Source: Candidatus Levyibacteriota bacterium (GTDB lineage Bacteria > Patescibacteriota > Microgenomatia > Levybacterales > UBA12049). From it: DNA of 64,000 bases. Each line of letters starts with the position of its first letter. Position 1 is the first letter of the stretch. The notes under the pieces were generated by a model, which saw only the letters and a program-made list of their open reading frames with translations, was not told where the DNA came from and ran no database searches. This document shows positions 9,663 to 48,958 of the stretch, one piece after another. The position numbers were made by a program, and so were the translations under genes. Location: assembly GCA_052034235.1 (NCBI GenBank), contig JBPOIT010000012.1:34161-98160 (forward strand), read 5' to 3'.

Positions 9663-9670
9663 TACTTATA

Positions 9671-10132: not shown

Positions 10133-10199
10133 GTGCGTGGTTTCGTGTTATTTTCGACGTTTTTTTGCAATGCTGATCAGTCTGTACCATATTAGCCTC

Positions 10200-10227
10200 T
10201 TGACAGCCTCAGTGTCAATAGTGTAAT
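10200..10227 (+). promoter_or_regulatory. Candidate sigma70-like promoter TTGACA-N16-TGTAAT, 12 nt upstream of the ATG at 10240
   Basis: The -35 TTGACA is at 10200-10205 and the -10 TGTAAT at 10222-10227, with no SD before the ATG. Confidence 0.35.
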
Positions 10228-10239
10228 CTAGGCACACTC

Positions 10240-10527
10240 ATGCCTAAAAGGAAAAAGACACGTAAGCAAAAAACAATGGCGGATGTAAGGCGCCAAACGG
10301 ATCAAAACGTTACGTATACTACTGCCACTATTGAGCCAAAAACTCAATTGCCGCAGGAGCATGTAGCAATGACACAGCCACTTCATCAACCAGTCCGCCA
10401 AACAGTTCAGCGAAATATTATAACTGCTGATTATCATTACCTCGGGAGAGATCTTACGAAAACATTGGTATTAACTGGGATTATCATAATCATTCAGCTT
10501 GCACTTAAATTTGGAATCGGTATGTAA
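10240..10527 (+). CDS. Hypothetical small protein with a highly basic N-terminus and a C-terminal TM helix
   Basis: 95 aa, 'MPKRKKTRKQK...' followed by 'LVLTGIIIIIQLALKF'. It sits downstream of the candidate promoter. Confidence 0.35.
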   Translation: MPKRKKTRKQKTMADVRRQTDQNVTYTTATIEPKTQLPQEHVAMTQPLHQPVRQTVQRNIITADYHYLGRDLTKTLVLTGIIIIIQLALKFGIGM

Positions 10528-10637
10528 CAGAGGGCTTTGCCTCTTTAAAACAATACATACATTTTATGAGGAATAACGATTTAGCTATTGAAACCCCACT
10601 CCGTAAGTAATGCGGTGTGAAAGGAGGTGATTATATT

Positions 10638-10781
10638 ATGGCATCAATGTATTGTGTAAAATGTCGTGCTAAGAAAGAAGTTAGTGACCCAGAAAAGGTT
10701 ACTATGAAAAACGGAAAGCCAGCACTGAAGGCAAAATGTCCAGATTGTGGTACAGGTATGTACAAAATTGGCTCAAAATAA
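10638..10781 (+). CDS. Small zinc-ribbon protein (DUF5679-like, CxxC...CxxC), 47 aa; not in the supplied ORF track
   Basis: Translation is MASMYCVKCRAKKEVSDPEKVTMKNGKPALKAKCPDCGTGMYKIGSK. A strong SD AAGGAGGTGA lies 8 nt upstream and a terminator follows. Confidence 0.7.
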   Translation: MASMYCVKCRAKKEVSDPEKVTMKNGKPALKAKCPDCGTGMYKIGSK

Positions 10782-10835
10782 AACCGTTACTCTCCTTGAA
10801 GATATATAAAAAAACTTCAAGGAACACGATGAAAA

Positions 10836-10868
10836 AACCCCGCTGCAAGGCGGGGTTTTTCTTTTTTG
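10836..10868 (+). terminator. Rho-independent terminator (CCCCGC-TGCAAG-GCGGGG stem followed by a T-run)
   Basis: The sequence 'aaaccccgctgcaaggcggggtttttctttttt' sits directly after the DUF5679 gene. Confidence 0.75.
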
Positions 10869-10908
10869 CTTGACCTCTTTTCATGCAAATGAAACAATAA
10901 ATACAGCT

Positions 10909-12513: not shown

Positions 12514-13039
12514 AAGGTCCAATAATGATATCTGGATTTGCCCGCCCGCGCTCGTCTGTATCCATTCCGTACCCTTCAAGCCATACATCAGGCAGTACAA
12601 ATCCTACGTATTCAGGTTCATACACGGCTTCACGTTTTGACGATTTGGAAATCAAGACACATGATTTGACAGATGCAGCTCCACGTTCTGTAAAGAGTTC
12701 TGCCAGATACCCCAAACTCACACCAGTGTCAAACACATCATCAACGAGTAAAATATGTTTGTCCTTTGGATCAAAATCAATATCATGAACAAGTTTAGGC
12801 TCTTTTGATGATTCAGTTCCCGTGACATAAGTGCGTAGTGTAATAAAACACAACCGTTGGTGTGTACAGTTCGCTTGGTACAACGCCCGTTCCAAATCAG
12901 CTGTAAAGACATGTGCTCCTTTGAGAATGCTGACGAGCATAAAGGGCTGCTTTTTATAATCTATGCTAATACGTGAAGCGAGCTCTTTCACTTTTTGGGC
13001 AATGTCTTCTGCTTTAACCAGTATTTTTTGCTCTGTCAT
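12491..13039 (-). CDS. hpt: Hypoxanthine(-guanine) phosphoribosyltransferase
   Basis: 182 aa with the PRPP-binding motif 'ILLVDDVFDTGVS'. Confidence 0.85.
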   Translation of the reverse strand: MTEQKILVKAEDIAQKVKELASRISIDYKKQPFMLVSILKGAHVFTADLERALYQANCTHQRLCFITLRTYVTGTESSKEPKLVHDIDFDPKDKHILLVDDVFDTGVSLGYLAELFTERGAASVKSCVLISKSSKREAVYEPEYVGFVLPDVWLEGYGMDTDERGRANPDIIIGPSTLETES

Positions 13040-14607
13040 GGGGTCTCTGTTCTTTCTGTGTAGGGAACGAGTTTAAACACTTTCACCACTGAAACATCTG
13101 ATTCTTTTATGATAGCCGCTCTTCCAAATGCTGCCACATCAAATAATGGATGGCCAAGCGGTTTGCAATGTATTTCTTCACAGACTACAAGAAGCTGCCC
13201 CGTGACAGTTTTACGCTGAGGATCGTTGATCGGATTATCAAGCTGCACAGGTTTATACCCCAGAATATCCAAATAATATCTGTAGGCATGATCTGAATTC
13301 CCACCAGAAATTAAAGCAAAATTATACGGTTTATCCTCGGTTTGTTTTATCACAAATTCTGCAATTTTTTTCACCTGATCACGCTGTCTATTGGGTTCAT
13401 TTTGAAATTTATGATGCGAAAGCAAAAAGCCAAACATACCTAAAAAGATAACCATACTTACCGTTATGCCGATAAAGTGCCGTTTTTTTGCAGTGCCAAT
13501 ATCATATATTCGGGAGAGCAAATTACCCGTCAGAAGAAACGGCAGCGGGAAAATAAACGTGAAAAGATAATCATAGACTTCCTTCTTATAAAAGCCGAAA
13601 AAGAATACGCCCAGAAAAAGCCACATCGCAAGAAGCATGGTGACAAATTTATTTTTGGTGAGAAACAGATACACAATTGAGGCAATTGCAATGACCATCG
13701 CGAGTAGTCCCCAGAATTGCAACGTAAGCAGTGGTACCTGCATAAATCTGTCAGGTGTTGGGAAGTCTACAAGAAGACGTGCAAAGATGCGGAAAAAGAC
13801 ATCGGAAATCGTTCCAAAAAAGGTGCCTCCTACTTCTGATTCTTTGGTTAAGGTATCGCCAAAAATGAATTTGCTAATTGCCCGAGTATTTTGAAATTCG
13901 TGACGGAATTCAAATGCGATAAATGGTGAAAAGCCAATCAAAAATCCGGCAAAAACAAACACATAATGTCTGAGTGTTTCAAGCACTTTTATTCTGGTAT
14001 TCATGAGCCACTCGGCAAAGAAGATATAGAAAAAGATACTAACGGCAAGAAAGAGCGAAAGATAATGCAGCTGCATACAAATTCCAAGTAAAAAGCCACT
14101 GAAAACGAAATACTTCCACGGTCGAGCAGAAGCAATGCCCTTAAAGACCATGTAAAGCGTCAGAAGTGAGAAAAACGGCAACACGTTAGGATTCCATGAC
14201 GAGTGTGAATAGTTAATAACTAGCGGAGAAACTGCGTAGAGTCCAGCCGCAAAAAGTCCAGCCCGTGTATCAAAAAACTTCTTTCCAACGAAATAGATAA
14301 GAAGTACAGCCGCTGTACTAAAAAGCGCAACCATGATTGCAGGTCCCACGGGATCAAGTTTAAAGAGCCACAGAAACGGCGTGATCATATAATAATACGC
14401 CGGTCCCATAAAGAAGTCTCCAGCCGAGGAACGAGGCCCCAGAAGTGTAAAATCGCCTTCAAGAATACTTTTGGCGACAAGGACATCTCTCCCCTCATCT
14501 CCGAGAAATGTCATATAGTCCGAAATTCGATAAAGCCGCATAAACGCAGCCAAAAGCAAAATCCCCCCCAACAAAACCCATGAAAGCTTCTTATTCATAA
14601 CAAACAA
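13036..14607 (-). CDS. GT-C family membrane glycosyltransferase (GT39/PMT- or ArnT-like, polyprenol-phosphate sugar dependent)
   Basis: 523 aa and polytopic. The first extracytoplasmic loop carries the 'R..ISDYMTFLGDEGRD' DE motif typical of the PMT_2/GT39/GT83 families. Confidence 0.72.
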   Translation of the reverse strand: MFVMNKKLSWVLLGGILLLAAFMRLYRISDYMTFLGDEGRDVLVAKSILEGDFTLLGPRSSAGDFFMGPAYYYMITPFLWLFKLDPVGPAIMVALFSTAAVLLIYFVGKKFFDTRAGLFAAGLYAVSPLVINYSHSSWNPNVLPFFSLLTLYMVFKGIASARPWKYFVFSGFLLGICMQLHYLSLFLAVSIFFYIFFAEWLMNTRIKVLETLRHYVFVFAGFLIGFSPFIAFEFRHEFQNTRAISKFIFGDTLTKESEVGGTFFGTISDVFFRIFARLLVDFPTPDRFMQVPLLTLQFWGLLAMVIAIASIVYLFLTKNKFVTMLLAMWLFLGVFFFGFYKKEVYDYLFTFIFPLPFLLTGNLLSRIYDIGTAKKRHFIGITVSMVIFLGMFGFLLSHHKFQNEPNRQRDQVKKIAEFVIKQTEDKPYNFALISGGNSDHAYRYYLDILGYKPVQLDNPINDPQRKTVTGQLLVVCEEIHCKPLGHPLFDVAAFGRAAIIKESDVSVVKVFKLVPYTERTETP

Positions 14608-14659
14608 CTACCACCCATTTTAATATAACTGTGGAGGATATACAATCGAAAGCGGTGTA

Positions 14660-17401
14660 CTAATACACGTATGCGGAGAGATCTGTTGTAGACCAGGTTG
14701 GACCTGTTGTCCAGTTGCTTGGTAGCGTTGTCAGATTTGTTTCTTGACTCCCAACACTTGTTCCACCAGATGCTTTATCTCTGAAGCGCACTATGCCGCG
14801 GTTTCTGGGACTGAGAACAGCAATCCAGTAGTTTGTTCCTTGTGTTATGGTTGTAGTCGGAAGCGTCAATATATTCCAACTGCCTTCTACTGTATTTGTG
14901 ATTTCAGCTTGCGAGAGAAGCGTTCCTGGGTTACCATTGTTGTCTGTATAGATACCCACCCGAACGCGAGTTGCAGCATTATCGTTATTGAGATAGAGAG
15001 CAATTGTATTTGCAGTACCTGATGTGAGAGCAGTGTACTTGAATGCTTCAGCTGAACCTGCACCGTTTGAGTCTTGATATGCTTCAAGTGTATCATTACC
15101 CACGAGTACTGTCGGGAGTGGTCCATCGGGGGTCATATTGACATACATTGAAAAGAGCTGATTTGTCATCGTCGGATTATTTGGAAAGCTTAATGGCCAG
15201 GCTCCAAAGTTTTGAGCATAATACGCTCCAATATTCTGCTCTGATGTTGTAATGTATAAATTATTCACATCATCACTTGAGGCGTTTGTGTTATACATTA
15301 ACCAATACGATGTTAGTGGACTAAAGGAGGCCGTAATGGGAAGTGTATTCCAGCTATTTGCTGTTAGCGTTCCTACAGTTGTTTCAGCAATCTTCGTTCC
15401 TGGCTTGCCATTTGCTTTGGTAGTATATATCGCCATTTGATACTCATTATTCGGTGAAGTATCTATATCTCCTACATACGCCGAGATACTCTCAACCGTT
15501 CCTCCAACAGGTCCTACAGTAAATTTTGTTCCGTTCATGACGTTCCGATTATGACTATCTTCAAATTCTCCGGGTGTCGGATAACCGATTGGTTGGGAAT
15601 ACTGCTTAATTCCGAAATGTACGGTTGTGTTTGCAGTCAGTGGAACTAAGACAGGATTGGTTGTTACCGCTGTATAGCCATTCGGCATCGTAAGTGTGAC
15701 GGTATAATTGCCGACTGGAAGAGCTGACAACTCATATGCTCCTGTTGTGTTTGTATTTACCGTTTGGCTTCCATCTCCTATAAGAATGACTTCAGCTCCC
15801 TCATATCCATTTTCTCCACTATCTTGAAATCCATTTTGGTTAATATCAACATACACACTTCCATTGATGACATACGTTGGGACAGATGTTGGAGTAGGTG
15901 TATCTGTCAGCGTTGGAGTTGGGGTATCCGTTGGTGAAGGGGTGGGCGTGTCTGTAGGGGTCGGTGTTGCTTGTAATTTCCATAGCTTCCATTCTTGCTC
16001 CCAGCCACAAGATTCGCAATTTGTACTAAATAATAACGAGTTATCAAATACGGTGTTTGGGGTGGGATAATTTGAACTGTTTCCTGGATTTAAATCTGCA
16101 ACAATTGAGGTTCCATTTGCAGTACCATCACTTTGCCAAATTTCAGTTCCATGCACACCATCATCTGCGCTGAAATAAATTGTAGTACCAAATACAATAG
16201 GTCTATTAAAATTAGGGAATGCATTATTTCCCGGATAGACATCTTTCACCATGCTGACTCCTGTACCATCAGTTTTCCAAAGTTCATAACCATGACTGTC
16301 ATCTCTAGCTGTAAAATACAAATTATTTCCCATAGAAGCAGTTACTTGAGGAATAGGCATTTGAAGCTGCGTTATTTGTACAGTCCCTGCTGCTGTACCA
16401 TCAGTTTTCCAAAGCGATGAACCTTGGCCATTACAATTGTTTACAAAAATGACATTATTATTTGAAAATCCTAGTACAAATGCAGCTGAATATTGAGTGC
16501 ATGGGTTGACATCAGCAACCATGGTTGTACCTGTTTCGGTTCCATCACTCTGCCACACTTCTTGTCCGTGTATTCCATCATTGGCTGTAAAGTATAATCG
16601 GTTATCGATGTCTTTTAACTCACTGTCACCTGTTGCTGAACCAAGCGTATTGAGGTTAATAAATGAATTCGCGCTGCCTGGATTAATATCCTGGACAATA
16701 TATGTGCCGGCCTCAGTTCCATCACTGCGCCATAATTCTTCGCCATTAATCGGGTCAGAACCGATAAAATACGCAACACCATTGAGTGTTGTCCCTGGAT
16801 TGTTGACTATCCGAACATCACTTATTTGATATGTGCCGGCCTCAGTTCCATCACTACGCCATAAATGAATTGAAGGATTACCGTTCGAACCCGTGTTTAC
16901 ATTAAATATAGTAGTATTGTTTATTGCAGTTAATAAAGGTTCGCCTGAGCTGATGCCTGCTGACGGATTAACAGCTGTAACCCGAACAGTCCCTTCAGAT
17001 GTACCGTCACTTTTCCAAAGTTGTTGTGTCCATCCGTCCGCGGTCATAAAAAAAAGCGTTCCATTGACGTCAGTCAATGAAACTGGTCCCTGAGTGCCAG
17101 GAAAAGATTTTACCATTGTGGTACCGGTCTCTGTTCCATCGCTCTTCCAAAGATTACATCCGGTTCCATCGTTCGCTCCAAAAAACACAAGATTGCCTGC
17201 ATGTACCACACCGAATTTAACGGCTGAGGGACATCGTGTAAGGGTTGGTGATATAGATGTAGTGGTTGCTGCAATCGTGACTGAAGTGGGAGTAACTAAA
17301 GAATAAATAATAGCAGCCAAAACTAAAGATAAAGTGCGAAATATAATCTTATTTTTTTTTATTCTGAATGCATTCATTACTGTAAAAAATAATAGTATCA
17401 T
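14660..17401 (-). CDS. Large secreted ELWxxDGT-repeat protein with a Pro/Thr linker, Cna-B/SdrD-B-like domain and two C-terminal ~150-aa beta-sandwich-like repeats
   Basis: A signal/TM N-terminus is followed by 8 copies of the '(E)LW(K/R/Q)(S/T)DGTxxGT' motif and the linker 'TPTPTDTPTPSPTDTPTPTLTDTPTPTSVPT'. A domain 'VDINQNGFQDSGENGYEGAEVIL...GAYELSALPVGNYTV' and duplicated C-terminal modules follow. Confidence 0.8.
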   Translation of the reverse strand: MILLFFTVMNAFRIKKNKIIFRTLSLVLAAIIYSLVTPTSVTIAATTTSISPTLTRCPSAVKFGVVHAGNLVFFGANDGTGCNLWKSDGTETGTTMVKSFPGTQGPVSLTDVNGTLFFMTADGWTQQLWKSDGTSEGTVRVTAVNPSAGISSGEPLLTAINNTTIFNVNTGSNGNPSIHLWRSDGTEAGTYQISDVRIVNNPGTTLNGVAYFIGSDPINGEELWRSDGTEAGTYIVQDINPGSANSFINLNTLGSATGDSELKDIDNRLYFTANDGIHGQEVWQSDGTETGTTMVADVNPCTQYSAAFVLGFSNNNVIFVNNCNGQGSSLWKTDGTAAGTVQITQLQMPIPQVTASMGNNLYFTARDDSHGYELWKTDGTGVSMVKDVYPGNNAFPNFNRPIVFGTTIYFSADDGVHGTEIWQSDGTANGTSIVADLNPGNSSNYPTPNTVFDNSLLFSTNCESCGWEQEWKLWKLQATPTPTDTPTPSPTDTPTPTLTDTPTPTSVPTYVINGSVYVDINQNGFQDSGENGYEGAEVILIGDGSQTVNTNTTGAYELSALPVGNYTVTLTMPNGYTAVTTNPVLVPLTANTTVHFGIKQYSQPIGYPTPGEFEDSHNRNVMNGTKFTVGPVGGTVESISAYVGDIDTSPNNEYQMAIYTTKANGKPGTKIAETTVGTLTANSWNTLPITASFSPLTSYWLMYNTNASSDDVNNLYITTSEQNIGAYYAQNFGAWPLSFPNNPTMTNQLFSMYVNMTPDGPLPTVLVGNDTLEAYQDSNGAGSAEAFKYTALTSGTANTIALYLNNDNAATRVRVGIYTDNNGNPGTLLSQAEITNTVEGSWNILTLPTTTITQGTNYWIAVLSPRNRGIVRFRDKASGGTSVGSQETNLTTLPSNWTTGPTWSTTDLSAYVY
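15900..15995 (-). repeat. Imperfect tandem DNA repeat encoding a (T/D/S)PTPT Pro/Thr linker
   Basis: The plus strand reads as iterated GGNGTNGG units (the antisense GVGV ORF 15864-16070 is an artefact of this). Confidence 0.6.
16066..17164 (-). repeat. Eight tandem ELWxxDGT protein repeats (coding)
   Basis: A ~45-aa periodicity of LWxSDGTxxGT motifs runs within the CDS 14660-17401. Confidence 0.6.
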
Positions 17402-17552
17402 TGATGACTTGCGTTGTAAAGATGACGCATTACATCATCTAAAATCTTGATGAACACTATTAGTTATCTCAGATAAAAAGACTTCTCTATATGAGCGAGG
17501 GTTAAGCCCAAACAAACTACTAGTTCTTAATAAAACTCCTACATGGCCAGGA

Positions 17553-17732
17553 ATGACCGGTAAGGAAGACTTAATAATCATCAACACTGAACTACTCCCT
17601 GTTCTTGGAGCGAAAGCTGAGGTTTATAATAATAAAATCGAAAAATTAAACAAAAATGAAAATTACCAATTAGCCATAAACCAAGATGGAGTTCTTATCT
17701 ACAGAAAAAAATCTTTTACCTTAAGCGAATAA
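17553..17732 (+). CDS. Unannotated 59-aa ORF in the 344-bp intergenic region (hypothetical; may be spurious)
   Basis: Translation is MTGKEDLIIINTELLPVLGAKAEVYNNKIEKLNKNENYQLAINQDGVLIYRKKSFTLSE. It is opposite in orientation to both flanking genes, with no SD. Confidence 0.2.
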   Translation: MTGKEDLIIINTELLPVLGAKAEVYNNKIEKLNKNENYQLAINQDGVLIYRKKSFTLSE

Positions 17733-17745
17733 CCAACCATTTACA

Positions 17746-19515
17746 CTAATTACCTTCTATAATAAATGTTCTCTTTTGTATATTCATTTTTATTGGTTCG
17801 TTGTTTTTAATGTTATTTACAAGAAAAGCGTTATGGGGATTTAGTTGATGGGCTTTATTTGCTGCATTAAGAGCTACCTGTTTATTGTTTTGTTTGTATT
17901 CTGAAAGTGCAAAGAGTAACCATAACTCTGAGTCATTTGGATAATCCTTTACTGCTGCGCGCATGAAATCTGTGGGGACGGGTGTATTTTCATAGAAAAT
18001 CATCATCGAAGCGTATCCTTTGTATGTATTGATTTGGTGTTTATGCGGATAAAAGGCGTTATATGATTTTGCCTTAAGTGCCTTTTCAAAATAGACTTTT
18101 GCTTCTTTTGGCTTTTCTGTTTCGGAATAGACAATTGCTAGATTGAGCAGATTAATTTCGTTCGGCCTAAAACTGATTGATTTCAGATAATGAATACGTG
18201 CTTGTTCATACCCTTTTCTACTTCCATATTCTGCACCCAAACTATTTTCTACAGCAAAATTATTTGATACCAGACTGTCTTGCGTGTGTAATATGATTCC
18301 GTTTTGCCAATCGGTGTTTCTGATCATCGTCCGTGTTCCAAATAATATCAGAACCATTATCGCAAATAGTACCGCAATGTGTTTAAGAGAAGGAAACCTC
18401 GTAAGTAAATATGTAGATGCAATGCCAAGCATCCCTAACATGCCGATCATTGTAAAATAAAACCATCGATCTCCAACTGTCATATCAAGAGGAAAAATGT
18501 TTGCATGGAAGAAAAGTCCTATGATAAACCATGTTAAAAAGAATAACCAGGGTTTAAAGTATTTATTCTCATTCTTGAATAAAAAGTTTGCAAACCCAAT
18601 TACCACACTGAAGAATACGGTATCTACTATCAGAGGGAATATAAATGTCTGAAAATCTATTGATGTGATTACCCAATGCTGCATATATGAAAGCTCCATT
18701 GGATAAAAAAAAGTCTTTACATAGTAAAAGAGTATAAGTGGAAGTGTCATAAATCGTTCCGCAAGAGTGGCATCAGCAATCGGCGCTAAAGGACGATCCG
18801 CTAGTCCTACCTGTCCGATAAAAAAACGTATACACAGATAAATTACAAAAGTTATCAGTGACCCTATGAAAAGTTTTGAAAAGTATTTTTTCTTAAATAG
18901 CCATGCATATAACACTGCGACGAAAATAAAAAGTATTCCTGTCTCCTTTGTGAGAAGTGTCAGAAAAAATGACACAAAAATAACAGCAAAGAGCTTATTG
19001 GTTACTTTTTCTTTTAATAAAAGAACGAGTGGGATTATGCCAAAGAGGAAGAAGATAGGATTCACAGATTGAGCAATATAAGAAACAGATTCCACATTCA
19101 TGGGATGAATGAGAAAAGCGACTGTTACAAAAAAGGCAATCCATGGTGTTAAAAATTTGCGAAAGAAAATGTAAACAAATCCAACACAAACAATATGAAG
19201 CAGTATCTGCACAAAATGATAGAAAAATGCATTCGTTGTAAACATCGAATAAAGCAGTGAGAAATACGCAGCGGGAACTGGACGATATTGCCCAACCGTA
19301 TTAAATGCATTAACCCCAAACCATGAACCTACATTTACTATATGTGTTTGAAGATTATTAATAATATAAAGCTTATCGTCAGCAACAAACTCATTGAAAA
19401 GCATGTTGGCAAATACAACAAGTCCAATTACGAGAATCAGATGCAAAGCTTTAAAGGTTGTTAGCGGAACAAAGAGGCTCTTCAAAGAAAATTCATCCTC
19501 ATTACTCTGCGGCAT
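17746..19515 (-). CDS. TMTC-like GT-C membrane glycosyltransferase (DUF1736-type 'FV.DD' motif) with C-terminal TPR repeats
   Basis: 589 aa. The first loop carries 'NEFVADDKLYIINN', about 10 TM helices follow, and the C-terminal ~170 aa are TPR-like ('YEQARIHYLKSISFRPNE', 'YFEKALKAKSYNAF', 'ALNAANKAHQLNPHNA'). Confidence 0.65.
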   Translation of the reverse strand: MPQSNEDEFSLKSLFVPLTTFKALHLILVIGLVVFANMLFNEFVADDKLYIINNLQTHIVNVGSWFGVNAFNTVGQYRPVPAAYFSLLYSMFTTNAFFYHFVQILLHIVCVGFVYIFFRKFLTPWIAFFVTVAFLIHPMNVESVSYIAQSVNPIFFLFGIIPLVLLLKEKVTNKLFAVIFVSFFLTLLTKETGILFIFVAVLYAWLFKKKYFSKLFIGSLITFVIYLCIRFFIGQVGLADRPLAPIADATLAERFMTLPLILFYYVKTFFYPMELSYMQHWVITSIDFQTFIFPLIVDTVFFSVVIGFANFLFKNENKYFKPWLFFLTWFIIGLFFHANIFPLDMTVGDRWFYFTMIGMLGMLGIASTYLLTRFPSLKHIAVLFAIMVLILFGTRTMIRNTDWQNGIILHTQDSLVSNNFAVENSLGAEYGSRKGYEQARIHYLKSISFRPNEINLLNLAIVYSETEKPKEAKVYFEKALKAKSYNAFYPHKHQINTYKGYASMMIFYENTPVPTDFMRAAVKDYPNDSELWLLFALSEYKQNNKQVALNAANKAHQLNPHNAFLVNNIKNNEPIKMNIQKRTFIIEGN

Positions 19516-19564
19516 AGACCTATTCTATATAAAAAAGGTGTGTATATAAACAGTGGGGGTTAGG

Positions 19565-20749
19565 TTAGGCTTCTACGGCGTGTTTGTCTTTTATGTAGTG
19601 GGTTTTCCAGATTATTTTGTTGTAGATGAAATAGTTAAACGGCAGGACGATAAAGAGGATGGTTGGGAAAAGGATGACCAGAGATGTGAGTATCGAATGA
19701 CCGAGGATGTCGACTCTTGGACCGTAGAAATGGACTGCTAAATAGGTCATGAGTGCCTGAAGGCCGATTGAGAGAATTGATGTAAAATTAAATTTGAAAA
19801 GTCTTCTCAGAAAACTCCCCTTCTCCTTTATGTGTTTTGTATCCTTAAACGTCCAGACATTGTTCAGTAAAAAGTTTGAAAGAATGGCAGTTTCTGCACC
19901 GAGTAGGGTCGCGACAAACTGCATGTGTTCAAGCCCGAGAAAACGAATGGAAAGATACGTCGTAATAAACTGAACAATAAAACCTGTGCCACCAACAAAC
20001 AGAAACTTCACAAAACGCTTTTTTTCCTCAAGCCGGAGTCTCACGACAACGTAAAGTGAATCAAATAAATCTTTCGAGGTAATTTTACTTGACCCTTCTG
20101 TTCGTTCATAAAATTTAATTGGCACCTCTTTCACTTTGGCGTGCATACTCATGACATCATGCAGGATGTGCAGCTTGTATGCATAATATTTTGAATAGAG
20201 ATTTTCAAGATCAACACGGCGAAGGAATGATGATTTTGTTAACTTAAACCCTGAAGTCATATCATGAACTGACATTCTGCCCCACACAAGCCTCGTAAAC
20301 AAACTTCCGGCAACGTAACTCAAAAACTTTCGATGAAGCCCCCACTCTTTGGGGATACTCCCGCCTTTAACGTAACGACTGCCGATGACACAATCTGCGC
20401 CCGAGTCCAACGCCTCAATGAGTCTTGGGATATCATTTGGATCATGTTGAAAGTCTGCATCAAATTCAACAATAGCATCTGCTCCAAGTTCGTTCATCGC
20501 ATACCTCATCGCTCGAGCATATGCAGCTCCCAAACCCTCTTTATTTCCCTCAAGTAAATGGAGATTTTTGTGGTCTTTGGCAAAGTGTTTGATGACATCT
20601 GCAGTTCCGTCAGGAGACTTATCATCTGCAACGAGGATGTGCATTTCATGGTTTTTAATCTTTGGAAAAACTTCATCCTCAAGCGTAGGAATCATCTTCT
20701 CCATGTTCACTTTTTCGTTGTAAGTTGGTAATATTACGACTATTTTCAT
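19565..20749 (-). CDS. GT2 polyprenol-phosphate sugar synthase (Dpm1/ArnC-like) fused to a C-terminal GtrA-like membrane domain
   Basis: 'IVVILPTYNEKVNMEKM...VADDKSPDGT' is the GT2 DPM1-like head and 'FVKFLFVGGTGFIVQF...' is a GtrA-like 4-TM tail. Confidence 0.75.
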   Translation of the reverse strand: MKIVVILPTYNEKVNMEKMIPTLEDEVFPKIKNHEMHILVADDKSPDGTADVIKHFAKDHKNLHLLEGNKEGLGAAYARAMRYAMNELGADAIVEFDADFQHDPNDIPRLIEALDSGADCVIGSRYVKGGSIPKEWGLHRKFLSYVAGSLFTRLVWGRMSVHDMTSGFKLTKSSFLRRVDLENLYSKYYAYKLHILHDVMSMHAKVKEVPIKFYERTEGSSKITSKDLFDSLYVVVRLRLEEKKRFVKFLFVGGTGFIVQFITTYLSIRFLGLEHMQFVATLLGAETAILSNFLLNNVWTFKDTKHIKEKGSFLRRLFKFNFTSILSIGLQALMTYLAVHFYGPRVDILGHSILTSLVILFPTILFIVLPFNYFIYNKIIWKTHYIKDKHAVEA

Positions 20750-21711
20750 AATGCTCTGACGTATTCAATCGTTTTTTGCAGGCCTTCTTCGAGCGAATGC
20801 GTTGGTGCCCACTGGAGCAGCGTTTGTGCTTTTGTAATATCTGGCTTTCGTTTCAGCGGATCATCTTCTGGAAGCTTTTCGTTCATGACAATCTCACTTG
20901 AAGAATTTGTCAGCTGTTTTACCAGTTTAGCATATTCAAGAACTGTGCGTTCTTCCGGAACACCTAAATTGATAATTTCCCCCCGGGCTTTTTCATAAAA
21001 CATAAGCCTCATTAACCCTTCTACTAAATCATCAACATAACAAAGCGATCGTGTTTGAGAGCCATCGCCGAAGACAGTAATTGGCTGATTTGAGAGCGCT
21101 TCTGTTATGAAATTAATTATCATTCTTTGATCTTCGCGAAGCATTCGTGGACCATAGGTATTAAAAATTCTGGCGATTCGCACATTCACATTCTTTTCCC
21201 TCCCAAAGTATGCAGTAATAGTCTCTCCAAAGCGTTTTGCTTCGTCATAGACAGAGCGTGGACCTGTCGTTGAGACATTACCGCGGTATTCTTCCTTCTG
21301 AGGATGCTCAAGCGGATCTCCGTACGTTTCAGACGTGGATGCAAACAAAAAGGAGGCACTATCTCTTTCAGCAAGTTTTAACAGTTCAAGTGTTCCGACG
21401 GTATTAACCATCATTGTTTCCATAGGAAGTGCGTGATAACTGATTGGGCTATGATGATTTGGCGATGCAGGTGAGGCAAGATGAAAAATTGCATTAATCT
21501 GTGGCAGTCTGTCTGCAACCATATCAAGAGGTTTTGTCACATCATGTTCTATAAAATGAAGCTGAGGATTATCAAACAGTTGAATGAGGTTTTCTTTTTT
21601 TCCTGTGAGCAGATTATCTATGCAAAAGACGTCATGTTTGTCTTGAATTAAGCGCGCGCAAAGATGCGAACCTATAAAACCAGCCCCACCGGCGACAACA
21701 ATATTGGCCAT
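20746..21711 (-). CDS. UDP-glucuronate decarboxylase (UDP-xylose synthase)-like NAD-dependent epimerase/dehydratase
   Basis: The motifs 'IVVAGGAGFIGSHLCARL', 'CIDNLLTGKKEN' and YxxxK ('YDEAKRF') match the UXS1 pattern, and the gene is adjacent to ugd. Confidence 0.7.
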   Translation of the reverse strand: MANIVVAGGAGFIGSHLCARLIQDKHDVFCIDNLLTGKKENLIQLFDNPQLHFIEHDVTKPLDMVADRLPQINAIFHLASPASPNHHSPISYHALPMETMMVNTVGTLELLKLAERDSASFLFASTSETYGDPLEHPQKEEYRGNVSTTGPRSVYDEAKRFGETITAYFGREKNVNVRIARIFNTYGPRMLREDQRMIINFITEALSNQPITVFGDGSQTRSLCYVDDLVEGLMRLMFYEKARGEIINLGVPEERTVLEYAKLVKQLTNSSSEIVMNEKLPEDDPLKRKPDITKAQTLLQWAPTHSLEEGLQKTIEYVRAL

Positions 21712-21761
21712 GGTTGTATGATACTAAACTTGAGGCTTTAATGGAAGAGTGAGTATAAAAA

Positions 21762-22733
21762 CTATCTATTTACCTTTTCGCGTTTGAGGTCTGATTTGAC
21801 CATCATTTCGACAAGTTCTTTGAAGCTTGTTTTTGGTTCCCAGCCAAGTTCATTTTTGGCTTTACTATAGTCACCAATGAGATAATCAACTTCTGCAGGT
21901 CTTATGAATTTAGGCTGGTCTGAGATAACGTACTCTTCCCAGTTCGTAATTCCTGCTGCTTTGAAAGCAAGTTTGGTAAATTCTTCAACAGAATGTGTTT
22001 CACCCGTTGAGATGACATAATCTTCTGGTTTTTCCTGCTGCAGCATCAGCCACATCGCTTCAACATAATCACCTGAGAAACCCCAGTCCCGCTTCGCTGA
22101 CATGTTACCTAGTTCTAATTTCTTTTGCTTGCCAAGCTTAATGCGTGCAACTGCGTTGGTAATCTTGCGAGTGACAAATTCAATACCTCGTCGTGGAGAT
22201 TCATGGTTGAATAAGATACCAGAGCATGCAAACATATCGTAACTTTCACGGTAGTTTAATGTGATGTAGTGACCGTATACTTTGGCAACACCGTATGGAC
22301 TTCGTGGATAAAAACGTGTTGTTTCTTTTTGAGGCGTTTCTGTCACTTTACCAAACATCTCAGAACTTGATGCTTGATAGAATTTGATTCGTGGATTAAC
22401 CTTTCTGATTGCTTCGAGAACTCGTGTAACACCAAGTGCTGTAAATTCGCCTGTGAGAACTGGCTGATCAAAAGAAGTTTGGACAAAAGACATAGCAGCG
22501 AGGTTATAGACCTCATCCGGCTCAGCGACTTCAATTGCTTGTGTCATTGAGGATGAATCAAGCAGATCCGCTGATAATAATTCAACATCATGTTGAATAT
22601 GACTGATATTTTCGATATTTGGTGTACTTAAACGTCTGACGGTACCAAAAACTTTATATCCTTTTTTAAGTAAAAGTTCTGCCAAATATGATCCGTCTTG
22701 TCCTGTGATTCCTGTAATAAGTGCTCGTTTCAT
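21762..22733 (-). CDS. gmd: GDP-mannose 4,6-dehydratase
   Basis: '[27 protein letters not shown]' is the canonical Gmd N-terminus; the length is 323 aa. Confidence 0.9.
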
Positions 22734-22750
22734 AATGTTATTTACCTATT

Positions 22751-23695
22751 CTAAACGATCTTTCGCCAATAGTCCAGTATGTCTTGTAATGTCTGTTCAA
22801 ACGGAATTTCAGGTTTCCATCCTGTGAGGTTTTGGAACTTCGTGCTGTCACAAACAATCTCCGGAACATCAATCGGACGAAATCTTTCAGGGTCAGGTCT
22901 GACTTCAATTTTTGCTGTTGAGAATGAAAGGAGTGTTTGCAGCATGTCATCAATCCTTCGAGAAATACCTGAACCAATGTTATACACATCCCCCTTCTCA
23001 CCTTTTTCAACAACGAGCTGGTATGCTTTTACCATATCCCGCACGTCTGTAAAATCACGCTTGGCTTCCAGATTCCCCACAAATAAGACGGGATTATTTT
23101 TTCCTTTTTCAATTTCAGCAATTTGTTTGGCAAATGATGATAAAACAAATGATTCCTTTTGGCCTGGTCCAATATGATTAAACGGTCTTACTCTCACAAT
23201 ATTCATTCTATAAGCCAAGCGGTATTGTAAACCCAAATAGTCCTGCGCTATTTTGGAAACAGCATACGGATTTACCGGACGAAGGTCTGTTGTTTCATCA
23301 ATTGGTAAATCTTCAGGTCGTATGACACCATACACTTCTGCTGTTGAAACGACAAGCACTCTGGTTTGAACAAGTTCAAATTTTCTGAGGGCTTCGAGGA
23401 TAGTTAATTCGCTCATGATATTATTGGTAATCGTTTCGGCAGGAGCTTTGAAACTTTCAGCAGCAGATGGAAGCCCAGCTAAATGATAAATAGCATCAGG
23501 TTTGTAGGTTTGGATCAGTGTATCAACAGCTTCCTGATCAAGCAGATTTACTTTTTCAAGCTGAACTCCACTTGGAAAGTCTCCGTGATCCGAACGATGT
23601 GTACCGATGATTTCAAACGCATTTTGGGAAAGTAAATTATTGGTGAGGTGTTTGCCAACAAAGCCTGTGGCGCCGGTAATGAGAATTCTTTTCAT
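22751..23695 (-). CDS. NAD-dependent sugar epimerase/reductase, GDP-6-deoxy-D-mannose reductase (Rmd)-like by context
   Basis: It has the SDR Rossmann motif 'ILITGATGFVGKHL', the YxxxK motif 'YAVSKIAQ', and sits immediately downstream of gmd. Confidence 0.55.
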   Translation of the reverse strand: MKRILITGATGFVGKHLTNNLLSQNAFEIIGTHRSDHGDFPSGVQLEKVNLLDQEAVDTLIQTYKPDAIYHLAGLPSAAESFKAPAETITNNIMSELTILEALRKFELVQTRVLVVSTAEVYGVIRPEDLPIDETTDLRPVNPYAVSKIAQDYLGLQYRLAYRMNIVRVRPFNHIGPGQKESFVLSSFAKQIAEIEKGKNNPVLFVGNLEAKRDFTDVRDMVKAYQLVVEKGEKGDVYNIGSGISRRIDDMLQTLLSFSTAKIEVRPDPERFRPIDVPEIVCDSTKFQNLTGWKPEIPFEQTLQDILDYWRKIV

Positions 23696-25024
23696 TTATC
23701 GTCCTACTCCAACATAGGTGAAACCAAGCGCTTTTGCTTTTTCAGGCTCGTAAATATTTCGTCCGTCAATCAGATATGGTGTTTTAAGCAGTGTCTTTAT
23801 CTTCACAAGATCAAGCTGTTTAAATTCGTTCCATTCAGTCACGACGATAAGTAAATCTGCATCTTTTGCAGCTGCATAGGCATCGTTTACAAAGTGTACA
23901 TTATTTTCATCCTTCAAAATTCTCTTCCCGTTTTCAAGAGCTATTGGATCAAAACTCTTTATTTTTGCGCCCAATCCAAGAAGCTCACGGATAATAATAA
24001 CCGAAGGAGCATCTCTCATGTCATCAGTATCAGGTTTAAAGGAAAGCCCCAAAACACCAATTGTCTTGCCATTCATATCTTCACCCAAGAGCTTCTTTGC
24101 TTTTTTAACAATACCCATTATCGCATCTTTATTTACCTGTTCAACTTCTTTTAAGATGCCAAAGTTGTAGCCGTAGTCATTTGCGATCGCGATAAGCGCT
24201 TTAACATCTTTCGGAAAACAACTCCCCCCGTACCCTGCTCCTGGATTGAGAAATGCTGTTCCAATTCGCTTATCCATACCCATTGCTTCAAGCACATCAA
24301 TACCGTTGGCACCTGTCAGTTCTGAAAGTTGCGCGATTGCGTTGGCAAATGAAATCTTTACTGAAAGAAACGCATTGGATGCGTACTTCACCATTTCTGC
24401 CGTCTCAATGTTGCATAGGAATAATCCTCCTTCACGACTTTCTCCTTTTATCGTTGTCATGAGGGGTTTGTGTAGTTCGACAAGTTTTTCTTCCGCTTTT
24501 TTGGATTCGGTACCGATAACAATTCTATCTGGATATCTTGTATCTGATATTGCTTGTCCTTCTCGTAAAAACTCTGGAACAGATGCAATATCAAACTGCG
24601 CATCTTCTGGCTTTACCTTGGTCATGAGTTCCTTTACTTTACGATTTGTTCCAACAGGTACGGTACTTTTAACATTCACCACTGTGTAACCATTGAGATG
24701 TTTTCCGACTTGCTCAGCAACTTCATAGACTACTCTTAGGTCTGCTTCACCTGTTGGTTTTGGAGGTGTACCCACTGCGATAAACACAACATCGGATTCT
24801 TTAACTGCTGGTGAATAATCAAGCGTAAACAAAAGTCTGCCTGCATCTACATTGCGTTTAACAAGTTCTTCAAGACCAGGTTCATAAATTGGAATGATGC
24901 CTTTTTTGAGGTTATTTACTTTTTCAGGCGTGTGTCCGATTACCCAAACAGTATTGCCGAGGTCTGCAAAAACCGCTGCTGATACCAAACCTACATAACC
25001 ATGTCCTACAAATGTAATTGTCAT
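23696..25024 (-). CDS. ugd: UDP-glucose 6-dehydrogenase
   Basis: The N-terminus 'ITFVGHGYVGLVSAAVFA', the catalytic-Cys region 'GGSCFPKD' and the 442-aa length match the UDP-glucose/GDP-mannose dehydrogenase family. Confidence 0.8.
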   Translation of the reverse strand: MTITFVGHGYVGLVSAAVFADLGNTVWVIGHTPEKVNNLKKGIIPIYEPGLEELVKRNVDAGRLLFTLDYSPAVKESDVVFIAVGTPPKPTGEADLRVVYEVAEQVGKHLNGYTVVNVKSTVPVGTNRKVKELMTKVKPEDAQFDIASVPEFLREGQAISDTRYPDRIVIGTESKKAEEKLVELHKPLMTTIKGESREGGLFLCNIETAEMVKYASNAFLSVKISFANAIAQLSELTGANGIDVLEAMGMDKRIGTAFLNPGAGYGGSCFPKDVKALIAIANDYGYNFGILKEVEQVNKDAIMGIVKKAKKLLGEDMNGKTIGVLGLSFKPDTDDMRDAPSVIIIRELLGLGAKIKSFDPIALENGKRILKDENNVHFVNDAYAAAKDADLLIVVTEWNEFKQLDLVKIKTLLKTPYLIDGRNIYEPEKAKALGFTYVGVGR

Positions 25025-44689: not shown

Positions 44690-44706
44690 ATTATAAAATA
44701 GGTATT

Positions 44707-45982: not shown

Positions 45983-48958
45983 ATGACGACACGGATAGAA
46001 ATTGGCGCAACTGTTTTTGATACGAGAGCTGCCGCGCGAGTTAAAAAGTTTCAATCACTCGGCTACAAACAGATCTCAACTCTTTGGATTTTCGATGTCT
46101 ATACTATCGATAAGAATTTTACTCAGACGCAACTTGAAGACATCGCTTCAAGACTTGCAAATCCTCTGACCCAAAACTTCGCCATTGTAAATGGTTCAAC
46201 AAAACCTGCCACAAAGAAATTCGCCTTTGCTATAGAAATTGGTTTTCTCCCGGGCGTTACCGATAATGTTGCCCATACAACAAAGGAGATAATTGAAGAC
46301 GGATTAAAAACAAAATTCGCCGAAACTGAAGGCGTCTACACTTCACAAGTCACATTTGTTGACGGCAAACTAACAGCCGAGGAGGCAGATCAAATTGCAG
46401 CATCACTTTATAATCCACTGATTCAAAGAGCTCATGTCAAAACATATGCTCAATTTATAAAAGACAACGGCATGGATGTTATTGTTCCACAGGTAAAACT
46501 TTCTGCAAAACCAAATATCTCTGATGTAAATCTGAATGTCTCAGATGAAGAACTTACTGTTATCGGTAAACAAGGAATAGCAAATGCAGATGGAACAAGA
46601 CGCGGACCACTCGCGCTTGACTTAACGTACATGAAAACCATTCAAGCATATTTCAAAAAGCTGGGACGAAATCCTACTGATATTGAAATTGAATCAATAG
46701 GCCAAACGTGGTCTGAGCATTGCAAACACACAATTTTTGCAGATCCACTTGATGAATTGAAAGACGGATTATTTAAGACATATATTAAAGGTGCTACTGA
46801 GTTGATACGAAAGAAAAAATCTGCCAAAGGCGGATCCGGTGATTTTTGTATTTCTGTTTTTACTGATAACTCAGGAGGTATTGCACTTGATGAGACATAC
46901 ATGGTGACACATAAAGTCGAAACACATAACAGTCCGTCAGCACTTGATCCATTTGGCGGTGCAATTACTGGTATCGTCGGCGTGAATCGTGACACCATCG
47001 GATTTGGAATGGGCGCAAAACCTGTTGCGAATTTTTACGGTTATTGCTTTGCAGATCCTCGAGTTGATATCCCGCTTTTTAGAGATCAAAAACTCACAAA
47101 TAAAATGCTCTCGTCGTCAAGAATTATGAACGGTGTTATTGATGGTGTGAATGCAGGAGGTAACCAATCAGGAATTCCAACGCCGTTGGGTTTTGTTTAT
47201 TTTGATGAACGTTATCGCGGGAAACCACTTGTCATTGTTGGAACAGTTGGACTCATACCACGAAAAATAAAAACAAAACTATCACATGTTAAAAAAGCGA
47301 AACCCGGTGATTTAATAGTTATAATCGGCGGACGTGTTGGAAAAGACGGCATCCATGGTGCAACGTTTTCATCAGAGGCGCTTGATAGTGGAAGTCCAGC
47401 AGCAGCGGTCCAAATCGGCGATCCGATTACACAGAAAAAATTAAGTGATGCAATCGTAAAAGAAGCGCGCGACATGCTTTTATATAACAGCATAACTGAT
47501 AATGGCGCCGGTGGACTTTCCTGCTCTGTCGCCGAAATGGCTAAAGAATCAGGTGGAGCAAAAGTCGAACTTGAAAAAGTACCACTGAAATATCCTGGAC
47601 TTGATCCTTGGGAAATTTGGGTTTCGGAATCACAAGAACGAATGACATTGGCAATACCAAAAACCAAATGGAAGAAGTTTTTAGAACTCATGACACGACG
47701 AGGAGTCGAAGCAACAGTTATTGGTGAATTTACAAAAACAGAAAAATGCGTTGTCACCTTTAACGGCAAAACAATTATGGATATGGATATGACATTTCTT
47801 CATGACGGTCTACCTGCTAAACAATTAACAACAACCTATGTCAAACCACTTTTTGAAGAGACATCTGTACCCGAAGAAAAATCATTAACAAACTCTCTGA
47901 GTGAAATGCTAAGCAGATTAAATATCACCAGTTTTGAATTTATATCACAACAATATGATCACATTGTCCAAGGGAATGCGGTTCTCGGGCCACTCCAGGG
48001 AAGAGGACGTGTGAATGCTGAAACAGCAGTTATTCGTCCAGTTCTTGATTCAAATAAAGGTGTTGTTCTGTCTCAAGCACTCTACCCTACGTACTCTGAA
48101 ATTGATCCATATAATATGTCTGCCAGTGCAATTGATAGTGCAATCAGACAGGCAGTTGCAGCAGGCGCTGACCCCGACAAACTGGCACTGCTTGATAACT
48201 TCTGCTGGTGCAGCAGCAACGATCCTGAAAGACTAGGCCAGTTAAAACTAGCTGTCAAAGCATGTTTCGATTATGCAGTTGCATACGGTACTCCATATAT
48301 TTCCGGCAAAGATAGTATGTTTAATGACTTTAAAGGGTATGATGAAAATGGAAAACCAATCGCTATTTCAATCCCGCCAACACTTCTTATTTCAAGTATT
48401 GGTGTTATACCCGACATTACAAAAGTCGTGTCACTCGATGCAAAAGTTCCTGGCGATTTAGTGTATATTCTCGGTGAAACATTTGAAGAACTCGCAGGGT
48501 CAGAATATTTCCAGTTGAAAAATGCGATAAGTAACGCAGTACCCAAAGTTGATCCGCGAAAAAATAAACTTATGTATGATGCATTTTATCAAGCAGTCCA
48601 AAAAAATCTCATCGCATCAAGTATCAGTATTGGACGGGGTGGTATTGCAACAGCTCTTGCCAAAAAAGCAATCGGCGGACAACTGGGACTTTCAGTAAGT
48701 CTACAAAATTTACCAGGACAAATAAGTCGTGATGATTTTGCACTCTATTCTGAAAGCCAAGGAAGAATACTTGTAACTATTGCAAAAGAAAAGAAAACCG
48801 CATTTGAAAAAGCTTTTGCTGGAATGAGTTTTCTACAGATTGGAAGTGTAACCAAAGAGCAACTAGTAGCTGTTAAAGGATTAGGTGGAATTGAAATAAT
48901 AAATCTCGATCTAAAAAAAGCAACTGATTCATATAGAAAAACATTTAAGGATTATTAA
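45983..48958 (+). CDS. purL: FGAM synthase large subunit with two N-terminal PurS-like modules (PurS-PurS-PurL fusion)
   Basis: 991 aa. Residues 1-80 and ~85-170 each look like PurS ('GATVFDTRAAARVKKFQSLGY...'). The remainder is the PurL AIRS/AIRS_C duplication ('GGAITGIVGVNRD', 'SGKDSMFN'). Confidence 0.85.
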   Translation: MTTRIEIGATVFDTRAAARVKKFQSLGYKQISTLWIFDVYTIDKNFTQTQLEDIASRLANPLTQNFAIVNGSTKPATKKFAFAIEIGFLPGVTDNVAHTTKEIIEDGLKTKFAETEGVYTSQVTFVDGKLTAEEADQIAASLYNPLIQRAHVKTYAQFIKDNGMDVIVPQVKLSAKPNISDVNLNVSDEELTVIGKQGIANADGTRRGPLALDLTYMKTIQAYFKKLGRNPTDIEIESIGQTWSEHCKHTIFADPLDELKDGLFKTYIKGATELIRKKKSAKGGSGDFCISVFTDNSGGIALDETYMVTHKVETHNSPSALDPFGGAITGIVGVNRDTIGFGMGAKPVANFYGYCFADPRVDIPLFRDQKLTNKMLSSSRIMNGVIDGVNAGGNQSGIPTPLGFVYFDERYRGKPLVIVGTVGLIPRKIKTKLSHVKKAKPGDLIVIIGGRVGKDGIHGATFSSEALDSGSPAAAVQIGDPITQKKLSDAIVKEARDMLLYNSITDNGAGGLSCSVAEMAKESGGAKVELEKVPLKYPGLDPWEIWVSESQERMTLAIPKTKWKKFLELMTRRGVEATVIGEFTKTEKCVVTFNGKTIMDMDMTFLHDGLPAKQLTTTYVKPLFEETSVPEEKSLTNSLSEMLSRLNITSFEFISQQYDHIVQGNAVLGPLQGRGRVNAETAVIRPVLDSNKGVVLSQALYPTYSEIDPYNMSASAIDSAIRQAVAAGADPDKLALLDNFCWCSSNDPERLGQLKLAVKACFDYAVAYGTPYISGKDSMFNDFKGYDENGKPIAISIPPTLLISSIGVIPDITKVVSLDAKVPGDLVYILGETFEELAGSEYFQLKNAISNAVPKVDPRKNKLMYDAFYQAVQKNLIASSISIGRGGIATALAKKAIGGQLGLSVSLQNLPGQISRDDFALYSESQGRILVTIAKEKKTAFEKAFAGMSFLQIGSVTKEQLVAVKGLGGIEIINLDLKKATDSYRKTFKDY

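Follow-up and report, generated by a model that had tools for sequence, protein, structure and literature searches.

An ELWxxDGT repeat protein with a predicted beta-propeller head, encoded in a glycosylation gene cluster of a Microgenomates bacterium

The accessory adhesin gene cnm of Streptococcus mutans lies beside the core genes pgfS (GT2), pgfM1/M2 (PMT_2-type membrane proteins) and pgfE (epimerase), the operon order being pgfS-pgfM1-pgfE-pgfM2, and the Pgf proteins glycosylate the Thr-rich region of Cnm and protect Cnm from proteolysis (PMC5856776). Another described system is that of the eukaryotic TMTC proteins, whose motifs M1-M7 are DD, SHKSYRP, RxD, KE(T/Q)xxT, DW, PxxP and ERxxY (PMC7801869). 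The ELWxxDGT family is also not new, since it has a curated NCBIfam model (TIGR04534) and thousands of annotated members; our literature search found no paper containing "ELWxxDGT" or "TIGR04534", and for DUF4082, a domain of similar proteins, it returned two incidental mentions only. Here we describe an ELWxxDGT protein encoded at positions 14660-17401, on the minus strand, of a 64,000-nucleotide stretch of DNA (the window, meaning that whole stretch). It is an ordinary new member of a very large family that is already named in databases but unstudied, and it would not surprise a specialist, since the combination of ELWxxDGT repeats with DUF4082-type tails is already known from other proteins. 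On balance, and with some reserve, we read it as a modular, adhesin-like binding protein, with a propeller head and an O-glycosylated tether, that a tiny, uncultured Microgenomates bacterium exports by the Sec route and that acts outside the cell. At 913 residues the word "giant", used of it in an earlier interpretation made without database searches (the sequence-only reading), is an overstatement; nor is it the largest open reading frame (ORF) of the window, as that reading had it, the largest being the PurL at 45983..48958 (plus strand), with 991 residues. The gene and its parts, with the evidence for each, are as follows.

14660..17401, minus strand: whole ORF of the ELWxxDGT repeat protein, 913 residues plus stop, ATG start (ORF listing and TIGR04534 match)
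17267..17401, minus strand: putative N-terminal export signal, residues 1-45 (Kyte-Doolittle windows)
15971..17221, minus strand: predicted beta-propeller head, residues about 61-477 (repeats, AlphaFold2, Foldseek)
15875..15970, minus strand: Pro/Thr linker, residues 478-509 (composition; ATPTPTDTPTPSPTDTPTPTLTDTPTPTSVPT)
15602..15874, minus strand: SdrD_B/Cna-B-type beta-sandwich stalk domain, residues 510-600 (Pfam PF17210, alignment to SdrD)
15122..15601, minus strand: C-terminal module A, residues about 601-760, predicted jelly roll like a carbohydrate-binding module (CBM), of the choice-of-anchor R/DUF4082 class (AlphaFold2, fold matches)
14663..15121, minus strand: C-terminal module B, residues about 761-913, a diverged duplicate of module A (pairwise alignment, DUF4082 and NF041539 scores)

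The repeats are real and far beyond chance given the score of the protein against TIGR04534 (ELWxxDGT_rpt), which was 336.7 bits (E=6.5e-103, cut-off 65) over eight stretches and places it in the family. Eight units had been claimed, and eight were counted by pattern as well: the motif W[KRQ][ST]DGT has its Trp at residues 85, 129, 181, 224, 283, 331, 375 and 422, with a spacing of 43-59 residues. A hidden Markov model of the repeat, trained on 250 homologue repeats, recovered eight full units at residues 84-467 and a partial unit at residues 64-80. The structure of residues 30-480 was predicted with AlphaFold2, and the model was all-beta, with a mean predicted local distance difference test score (pLDDT) of 83.1 and a predicted TM score (pTM) of 0.84. 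Its 34 strand elements fall into nine groups: eight blades of four strands, in one of which the fourth strand is short, and one blade of three. Mapped onto the sequence, the LW strand comes third in every four-stranded blade. The ninth blade, at residues 447-477 (...SLLFSTNCESCGWEQEWKLWKLQ), is truncated or degenerate: its three strands are TPNTVF, SLLFSTN and WKLWKLQ, and the SDGT turn is absent. The Cys-containing segment named in the sequence-only reading is present (NCESCGW, with C462 and C465). The head is thus predicted to be a roughly nine-bladed beta-propeller of eight canonical blades plus a truncated ninth, and the partial unit and eight full units of the repeat model give the same count of nine. 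The earlier count of eight stands for the canonical units and had left out the degenerate blade.

Foldseek comparison of the head model with the PDB gave 658 matches at E<=1e-3, the top ones all propellers, with E down to 6e-10 and a probability of 1.00. The top matches were the sortilin Vps10p domain (10 blades, TMq 0.52-0.56), LRP6, prolyl oligopeptidases, BamB and the designed 8-blade Ika8. The propeller-like array proposed from the letters alone therefore has a coherent and confident structural model behind it. A PDB sequence search with the whole protein matched the SdrD B domain and, through low complexity, the Pro/Thr linker, but neither the repeats nor the C-terminal modules. With no sequence-matched solved structure and an empty literature search, the statement that the function of the repeats is uncharacterised holds.

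The family is very large, as a word-index search with the whole protein gave at least 8000 candidates. Among the 120 relatives listed, which were ordered by summed score, the matches were confined to the N-terminal part of the query (40-54% of its length, with 33-42% identity), and many of these proteins are called "ELWxxDGT repeat protein" by NCBI or JGI. The hosts of the named relatives include Planctomycetota, Myxococcota, Cyanobacteria, Actinomycetota, Acidobacteriota and others. The listed relatives have 11-19 copies of the motif against eight here, and they are biased to long arrays because of the ranking by summed score. Their tails are the C-terminal domain of the type IX secretion system (T9SS; PF18962), cadherin, PKD, fn3, Calx-beta and DUF5980 domains, and, in 6 of the 120, DUF4082 (PF13313). 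Considering that the tails are extracellular and so varied, the ELWxxDGT propeller is a widespread extracellular head module joined to many tails. An alignment of the protein with 40 homologues (41 sequences) gave the family repeat consensus GxLFFxAxDGxxGxELWKSDGTxxGTxxVKDIxPG.

The head is followed by the Pro/Thr linker of the sequence-only reading, which has 14 Thr and 10 Pro in 32 residues (50% Ser plus Thr) and is a candidate O-glycosylation tract, glycosylation being suggested by the neighbouring genes. The stalk behind it had been called SdrD-B/Cna-B-like, and it is indeed matched by Pfam SdrD_B (PF17210) at residues 515-582 with 46.8 bits (E=3.8e-12), above the gathering threshold of 29.7. 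It also aligns to a solved SdrD B domain (10ps_A, E=3.7e-9), in which DTNKNGIQD stands opposite the DINQNGFQD loop of our protein; the calcium-loop residues D-x-N-x-N-G-x-x-D are common to both. The two C-terminal repeats of about 150 residues that had been noticed by eye, modules A and B, are 26% identical over 81 residues (pairwise E=3e-5). In an AlphaFold2 model of residues 498-913 (pLDDT 73.1 overall), module A was above 90 and module B mostly 76-92, while the SdrD_B part was modelled poorly because the alignment held no homologues for it. Their affinity to the DUF4082 type is visible in the profile scores. The choice-of-anchor R model NF041539 matched the protein in two stretches, the best at residues 776-907, with 29.6 bits against a cut-off of 30, and DUF4082 (PF13313) matched module B with 17.3 bits (E=0.0048) against a gathering threshold of 28.4; module A matched no Pfam model. 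Hence, of the TIGR04534, DUF4082 and Cna-B families to which the sequence-only reading had looked, TIGR04534 and SdrD_B pass and DUF4082 falls under its threshold. Glycan binding by the two modules would follow from the predicted fold only.

Modules A and B together (residues 596-913) were used as a query for relatives of the tail. The word-index search found 23. When 1.84 billion cluster representatives were searched exhaustively with HMMER, 2822 matched at E<=1e-3, and 1671 still did so at E<=1e-10. The nearest (P0121, P0145 and P0146) were 55-58% identical over both modules. Two of the relatives pass NF041539 (P0145 with 34.8 bits and P0122 with 35.1), P0146 scores 28.5, and P0121-P0123 carry a precomputed PF13313, so that the relation of our tail to DUF4082 is one of remote homology. 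In some relatives the module is joined to Vgb-lyase-like propellers, PQQ/BamB-like propellers or Kelch/GlxA-type copper radical oxidases, and in others to arrays of CarboxypepD_reg/SdrD_B and Ig-like domains. Since the partners differ in this way, the tail module is a shuffled, mobile accessory module of extracellular proteins, often placed behind a propeller. The contigs of P0145 (L083, 1.12 Mb) and P0146 (L084), whose tails are 55-56% identical to ours, have a G+C content (GC) of 0.54-0.58, compared with 0.39 for the window, a possible sign that distant lineages have exchanged the cassette.

These partners bring up the best surviving alternative, that the protein is a secreted enzyme whose propeller acts on an extracellular polymer or small molecule, with the CBM-like modules targeting a polysaccharide substrate. 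In fact, the closest tail relatives sit on propellers of enzyme families, namely GlxA-like radical copper oxidase/Kelch (P0144, P0149, P0152), Vgb-lyase-like (P0145) and PQQ/BamB-like (P0147, P0148, P0150). However, searches of Pfam, NCBIfam and the PDB linked our propeller to no catalytic family, and its Foldseek likeness is generic to propellers of 6-10 blades. Moreover, conserved L, W, D, G, T and F stand at fixed positions in every repeat, as structural residues would, and not as a single active site. We therefore regard an enzyme as unlikely.

The N-terminus has the order expected of an exported protein: basic RIKKNK, then a hydrophobic stretch at residues ~18-46, then TIAA|TTT. Kyte-Doolittle windows above 1.5 start only at residues 18-28, and this is the sole hydrophobic stretch in the protein. 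Judged from the sequence, it probably acts either as a signal anchor or as a Sec signal peptide. The other end, ...TTDLSAYVY, has no C-terminal hydrophobic segment and no LPXTG. For the whole protein, no SLH or other S-layer domain was found in Pfam or NCBIfam at E<=1. S-layer, MSCRAMM (microbial surface component recognizing adhesive matrix molecules) and autotransporter readings were rejected, as the defining domains were not found in Pfam or NCBIfam.

The gene lies in a minus-strand cluster that runs from 25024 to 12491 and encodes, in this order, a UDP-glucose/GDP-mannose dehydrogenase, three epimerase/dehydratases, a GT2+GtrA protein, a GT-C glycosyltransferase with tetratricopeptide repeats (TPR-GT-C), the ELWxxDGT protein, a PMT_2 GT-C glycosyltransferase and HPRT. 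The claim that it is embedded in a glycosylation locus is thus well founded, with sugar-nucleotide genes, the GT2-GtrA gene and two GT-C genes around it.

20746..25024, minus strand: sugar-nucleotide genes, three epimerase/dehydratases (one GDP-mannose 4,6-dehydratase-like) and the UDP-glucose/GDP-mannose dehydrogenase (family matches)
19565..20749, minus strand: GT2 + GtrA fusion, 394 residues, candidate polyprenyl-phosphate-sugar synthase (PF00535 + PF04138)
17746..19515, minus strand: upstream neighbour, 589 residues, PMT_2-like GT-C glycosyltransferase with multiple transmembrane segments and C-terminal TPRs (TPRs; PMT_2 E=0.01)
13036..14607, minus strand: downstream neighbour, 523 residues, PMT_2-family GT-C glycosyltransferase (PF13231, E=6.1e-15)

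The GT2-GtrA protein has sub-threshold matches to AglJ, PpgS and PgfS. The genes for HPRT (12491-13039) and PMT_2 (13036-14607) lie on the same strand and share 4 nt (13036-13039), which suggests translational coupling of purine salvage to the cluster. Beside the cluster, 10870-12513 (plus strand) encodes a 547-residue protein whose sole family match is a C-terminal PsbP_2 domain (residues 394-542) and whose N-terminal part reads as mostly hydrophobic. A 197-residue PsbP-like protein is also encoded directly downstream of a TPR-GT-C homologue in a metagenome locus (L085:7226-7816), so PsbP-like exported proteins may be a recurrent neighbour or substrate.

The N-terminal part of the 589-residue upstream neighbour stays under the gathering score of PMT_2 at the E value given above, and an orthologue reaches E=6.4e-4. 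It has many homologues of about 580 residues, for which PF13231 is often precomputed and which JGI often names "protein O-mannosyl-transferase". In the neighbour, DD46-47, YRP77-79 and KET190-192 correspond to M1, M2 and M4 of the TMTC motifs and follow one another in that order; RxD and ERxxY were not evident, DW is uncertain (GDRW349-351), and DUF1736 gave no Pfam match. Because RxD, ERxxY and DUF1736 are missing, the neighbour appears to be TMTC-like in architecture and is not called a TMTC. In another locus (L106:4286-13755, ERZ25039480 contig_6007), at least 5 or 6 tandem genes encode TPR membrane proteins of about 570-670 residues that are paralogues of 17746-19515, one of them with TMEM260_N, PMT_2 and TPR Pfam matches, which points to an expanded TMTC/TMEM260-like family in one genome.

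The gene directly upstream of P0146, a protein that has the tandem tail of ours but not its head, encodes a full-length homologue of the 589-residue neighbour (28% identity, E=8e-64). We collected 19 loci with TPR-GT-C homologues, the window included, a sample that is small and not phylogenetically controlled. In 7 of the 19 (the window, L084, L088, L094, L103, L111 and L112/113), the TPR-GT-C gene lies directly upstream, on the same strand, of a large Thr-rich gene of the SdrD_B/CarboxypepD_reg (or He_PIG/Ig) type; without the two discovery cases the proportion is 5/17. The adjacency was not found at L085, L086, L090/91, L092, L098, L100, L104, L105, L106, L107, L108/109 and L110. Since such surface-protein genes are otherwise rare in these loci, the association looks non-random, as far as a sample of this size and without phylogenetic control can say. 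The shared feature of the paired loci is the beta-sandwich type of the stalk and not the propeller. A stricter pair, in which a TPR-GT-C gene is followed by a choice-of-anchor-R cassette or an ELWxxDGT gene, was rejected: in the 18 metagenome loci with TPR-GT-C homologues (L085-L102) neither was detectable by phmmer (0/18), and only the looser SdrD_B/CarboxypepD_reg association holds.

One of the unpaired loci, L110 (1-11758, GC 0.35), is syntenic with 8496-21711 of the window. It has two tandem TPR-GT-C genes and then the PMT_2 gene directly, and its products are 61% (GT2-GtrA), 57% (PMT_2), 60% (DUF4446) and 61% (DUF3048) identical to those of the window. However, when the window proteins were compared with L110 by tblastn, the ELWxxDGT, HPRT and 547-residue PsbP_2 genes had no counterpart there. 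What lies between the TPR-GT-C gene and DUF4446 therefore varies, and because L110 keeps the cluster without it, the ELWxxDGT gene is an accessory gene in a conserved cluster.

The same evidence bears on the second alternative, a structural envelope protein or S-layer-associated protein that forms or decorates a surface lattice; an S-layer association had also been suggested by the sequence-only reading. Such a protein could well be exported, Thr-rich, probably glycosylated and encoded beside glycosylation genes, as ours is, and the sub-threshold match of the GT2-GtrA protein is to AglJ, an archaeal S-layer glycosyltransferase. But the protein has no match to SLH or to any other S-layer or lattice-forming domain in Pfam and NCBIfam, and a gene that is absent from a syntenic locus does not behave like a core envelope component. 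We consider this role improbable, more so than an enzyme, and the suggested S-layer association was dropped.

The gene itself is sound. It was found in two independent public assemblies, with 6 nt differences from the window over the 2742-nt ORF, of which 5 fall on third codon positions. Identity across assemblies is 99.3% and 98.6% in the two flanks, lower than in the ORF. Because two independent assemblies carry the gene, it cannot be put down to faulty assembly or a frameshift, and the ORF was re-translated exactly, with the repeats in place. Past the signal region its segments have a GC of 0.41-0.46 (0.57 in the Pro/Thr linker), compared with 0.39 for the window. Thus a decaying or recently acquired passenger gene without current function, or an assembly chimera, would agree with that composition and with the absence from L110, but is very improbable when the 913-codon ORF is intact, three assemblies agree with mostly third-position differences and stronger conservation than in the flanks, and every domain is complete, two of them with confident structure models. 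A scan for tandem DNA repeats showed that neither the linker nor the protein repeats arose by recent duplication of DNA. Promoter-like sites around the gene (8, against 9.8±3.0 in shuffles) and terminator-like sites (4, against 2.1±1.3, all four within the ORF) were uninformative. One hairpin with an 11-bp stem and T8 (17058-17083, minus strand) looks like a terminator inside the coding region, in propeller blade 2 (residues ~107-115), and may be due to chance.

We return to the exported binding protein as the reading that we prefer. In it, the propeller would be the ligand-binding head and the SdrD_B domain a calcium-stiffened spacer. The two jelly rolls would bind glycan, either that of the cell's own envelope, as a non-covalent anchor, or a target polysaccharide; the lack of a covalent anchor is the reason for proposing retention on the own envelope. 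Outside the membrane, the flanking GT-C enzymes would O-glycosylate the Thr-rich tether and perhaps the beta-sandwich domains too, with a polyprenyl-phosphate sugar donor made by the GT2-GtrA protein, a step modelled on the S. mutans Pgf proteins acting on Cnm.

Several points weigh against this scheme. The glycosylation cluster also exists without our gene, and 12 of the 19 TPR-GT-C loci have no adjacent surface-protein gene, so a physical link is no proof of an enzyme-substrate relation. The cleavage site of the signal peptide was read from the residues around it only. No recognised cell-wall anchor (LPXTG, SLH, PEP-CTERM, T9SS) was found in the protein; its retention on the surface is therefore only one possibility, and plain release from the cell is another. 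NF041539 is 0.4 bit under its cut-off and DUF4082 well under, and a predicted CBM-like fold is no proof of glycan binding. Blade number and ring closure were inferred from the list of strands of the model and not from coordinates, and the same applies to the source of the outer strand that blade 9 lacks. Finally, we found no ligand, binding-site residues or experimental datum for any ELWxxDGT protein. The word "adhesin" of the sequence-only reading is thus a reasonable inference from the layout, but it is unproven for a protein that has no LPXTG or other C-terminal anchor and is not an MSCRAMM.

The host was placed by PurL. The PurL of the window is 67-72% identical to the PurLs of metagenome-assembled genomes of Levybacteria, Gottesmanbacteria and Roizmanbacteria, while tRNA and Rfam scans of the window had no match and so gave no taxonomic marker; on these neighbours the window comes from a genome of the Microgenomates (Candidate Phyla Radiation, CPR/Patescibacteria). 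PurL belongs to a long run of ORFs on the plus strand (42563-60321) that may be a purine-biosynthesis operon, with the family check made on PurL alone. Residues 3-69 of PurL have a sub-threshold match to the 74-position phosphoribosylformylglycinamidine synthase model NF005019 and may be a fused PurS. CPR genomes usually lack de novo nucleotide synthesis, and a purine operon would be unusual there.

Large exported binding proteins are obvious candidates for the attachment of CPR/Patescibacteria to a host or substrate, and this one has plausible glycosylation machinery alongside. A broader proposal, which we put forward tentatively and trust less than the assignment of the protein itself, is that the TPR-bearing PMT_2/TMTC-like GT-C proteins of Patescibacteria are dedicated, domain-directed O-glycosyltransferases for the SdrD_B/CarboxypepD_reg proteins encoded downstream of them, our protein being one such glycosylated attachment protein. 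If this is true, they would correspond, in bacteria, to the TMTC-cadherin and TMEM260-IPT systems of O-mannosylation in eukaryotes, and our protein would be a host- or substrate-attachment protein of an ultra-small episymbiont, encoded by an accessory gene in a conserved glycosylation cluster. Should each such GT-C protein act on the surface protein paired with it, the origins in bacteria of domain-specific protein O-mannosylation could be tested directly. The protein is of use chiefly as a minimal, single-propeller representative of its family and as an entry to the question whether, in Patescibacteria, TMTC-like glycosyltransferases are paired with surface proteins of the beta-sandwich type. 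Since the single propeller (~450 residues) models confidently, it lends itself to use as a minimal construct with which to obtain a first structure and to screen ligands.

Compared with other ELWxxDGT proteins (TIGR04534), ours has the same tandem repeat consensus of about 47 residues and the same extracellular multi-domain setting, and some members share DUF4082 (PF13313) tails. Unlike the relatives listed, with their 11-19 copies, it is a single propeller of eight canonical repeats and a degenerate ninth; the named relatives come from other phyla than the Microgenomates/CPR, and instead of a C-terminal sorting domain it has a tail of Pro/Thr linker, SdrD_B domain and tandem choice-of-anchor-R-like modules. 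These modules are homologous (55-58% identity) to tandem modules that pass NF041539 or carry PF13313, and they share the predicted beta-sandwich; they differ in scoring 29.6 against 30 and 17.3 against 28.4, and in module A having no Pfam match. With the MSCRAMMs SdrD and Cna the protein shares an N-terminal putative ligand-binding head followed by a B-type (Cna-B/SdrD_B) stalk with the D-x-N-x-N-G-x-x-D loop. In contrast, its head is a propeller and not a DEv-IgG A domain, and it has one B domain, no SD repeats and no LPXTG. The MSCRAMM models NF012181 (34.8 bits, cut-off 2500) and NF000535 (25.4 bits) matched the B domain only (cut-offs 1700-2500). Given these scores far under the cut-offs and the missing LPXTG or other C-terminal anchor, the protein resembles an MSCRAMM in layout and is not a member.

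The 589-residue neighbour shares with the eukaryotic TMTC1-4 and TMEM260, which are domain-specific protein O-mannosyltransferases, an N-terminal GT-C/PMT-clan region with multiple transmembrane segments, followed by C-terminal TPRs, and the DD, YRP and KET motifs in the same order, and its gene is associated with beta-sandwich-domain proteins as the TMTCs are with cadherins. It differs from them in having no DUF1736 match, no evident RxD or ERxxY and a PMT_2 score under the gathering score. Set against the Cnm/Pgf system, the present system is known from its genes alone, and it belongs to another phylum, with another adhesin fold and no LPXTG; one GT-C neighbour has C-terminal TPRs, which the part of PMC5856776 on which we draw does not describe for PgfM1/M2. 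On the other hand, the gene layout is the same, an accessory gene for a Thr-rich surface protein standing on the same strand beside GT2, PMT_2 membrane protein and epimerase genes, and the glycosylation genes are conserved where the adhesin gene is absent, here in L110. The pairing of TPR-GT-C genes with surface-protein genes in 7 of the 19 loci suggests an O-glycosylated, Cnm/Pgf-like adhesin arrangement.

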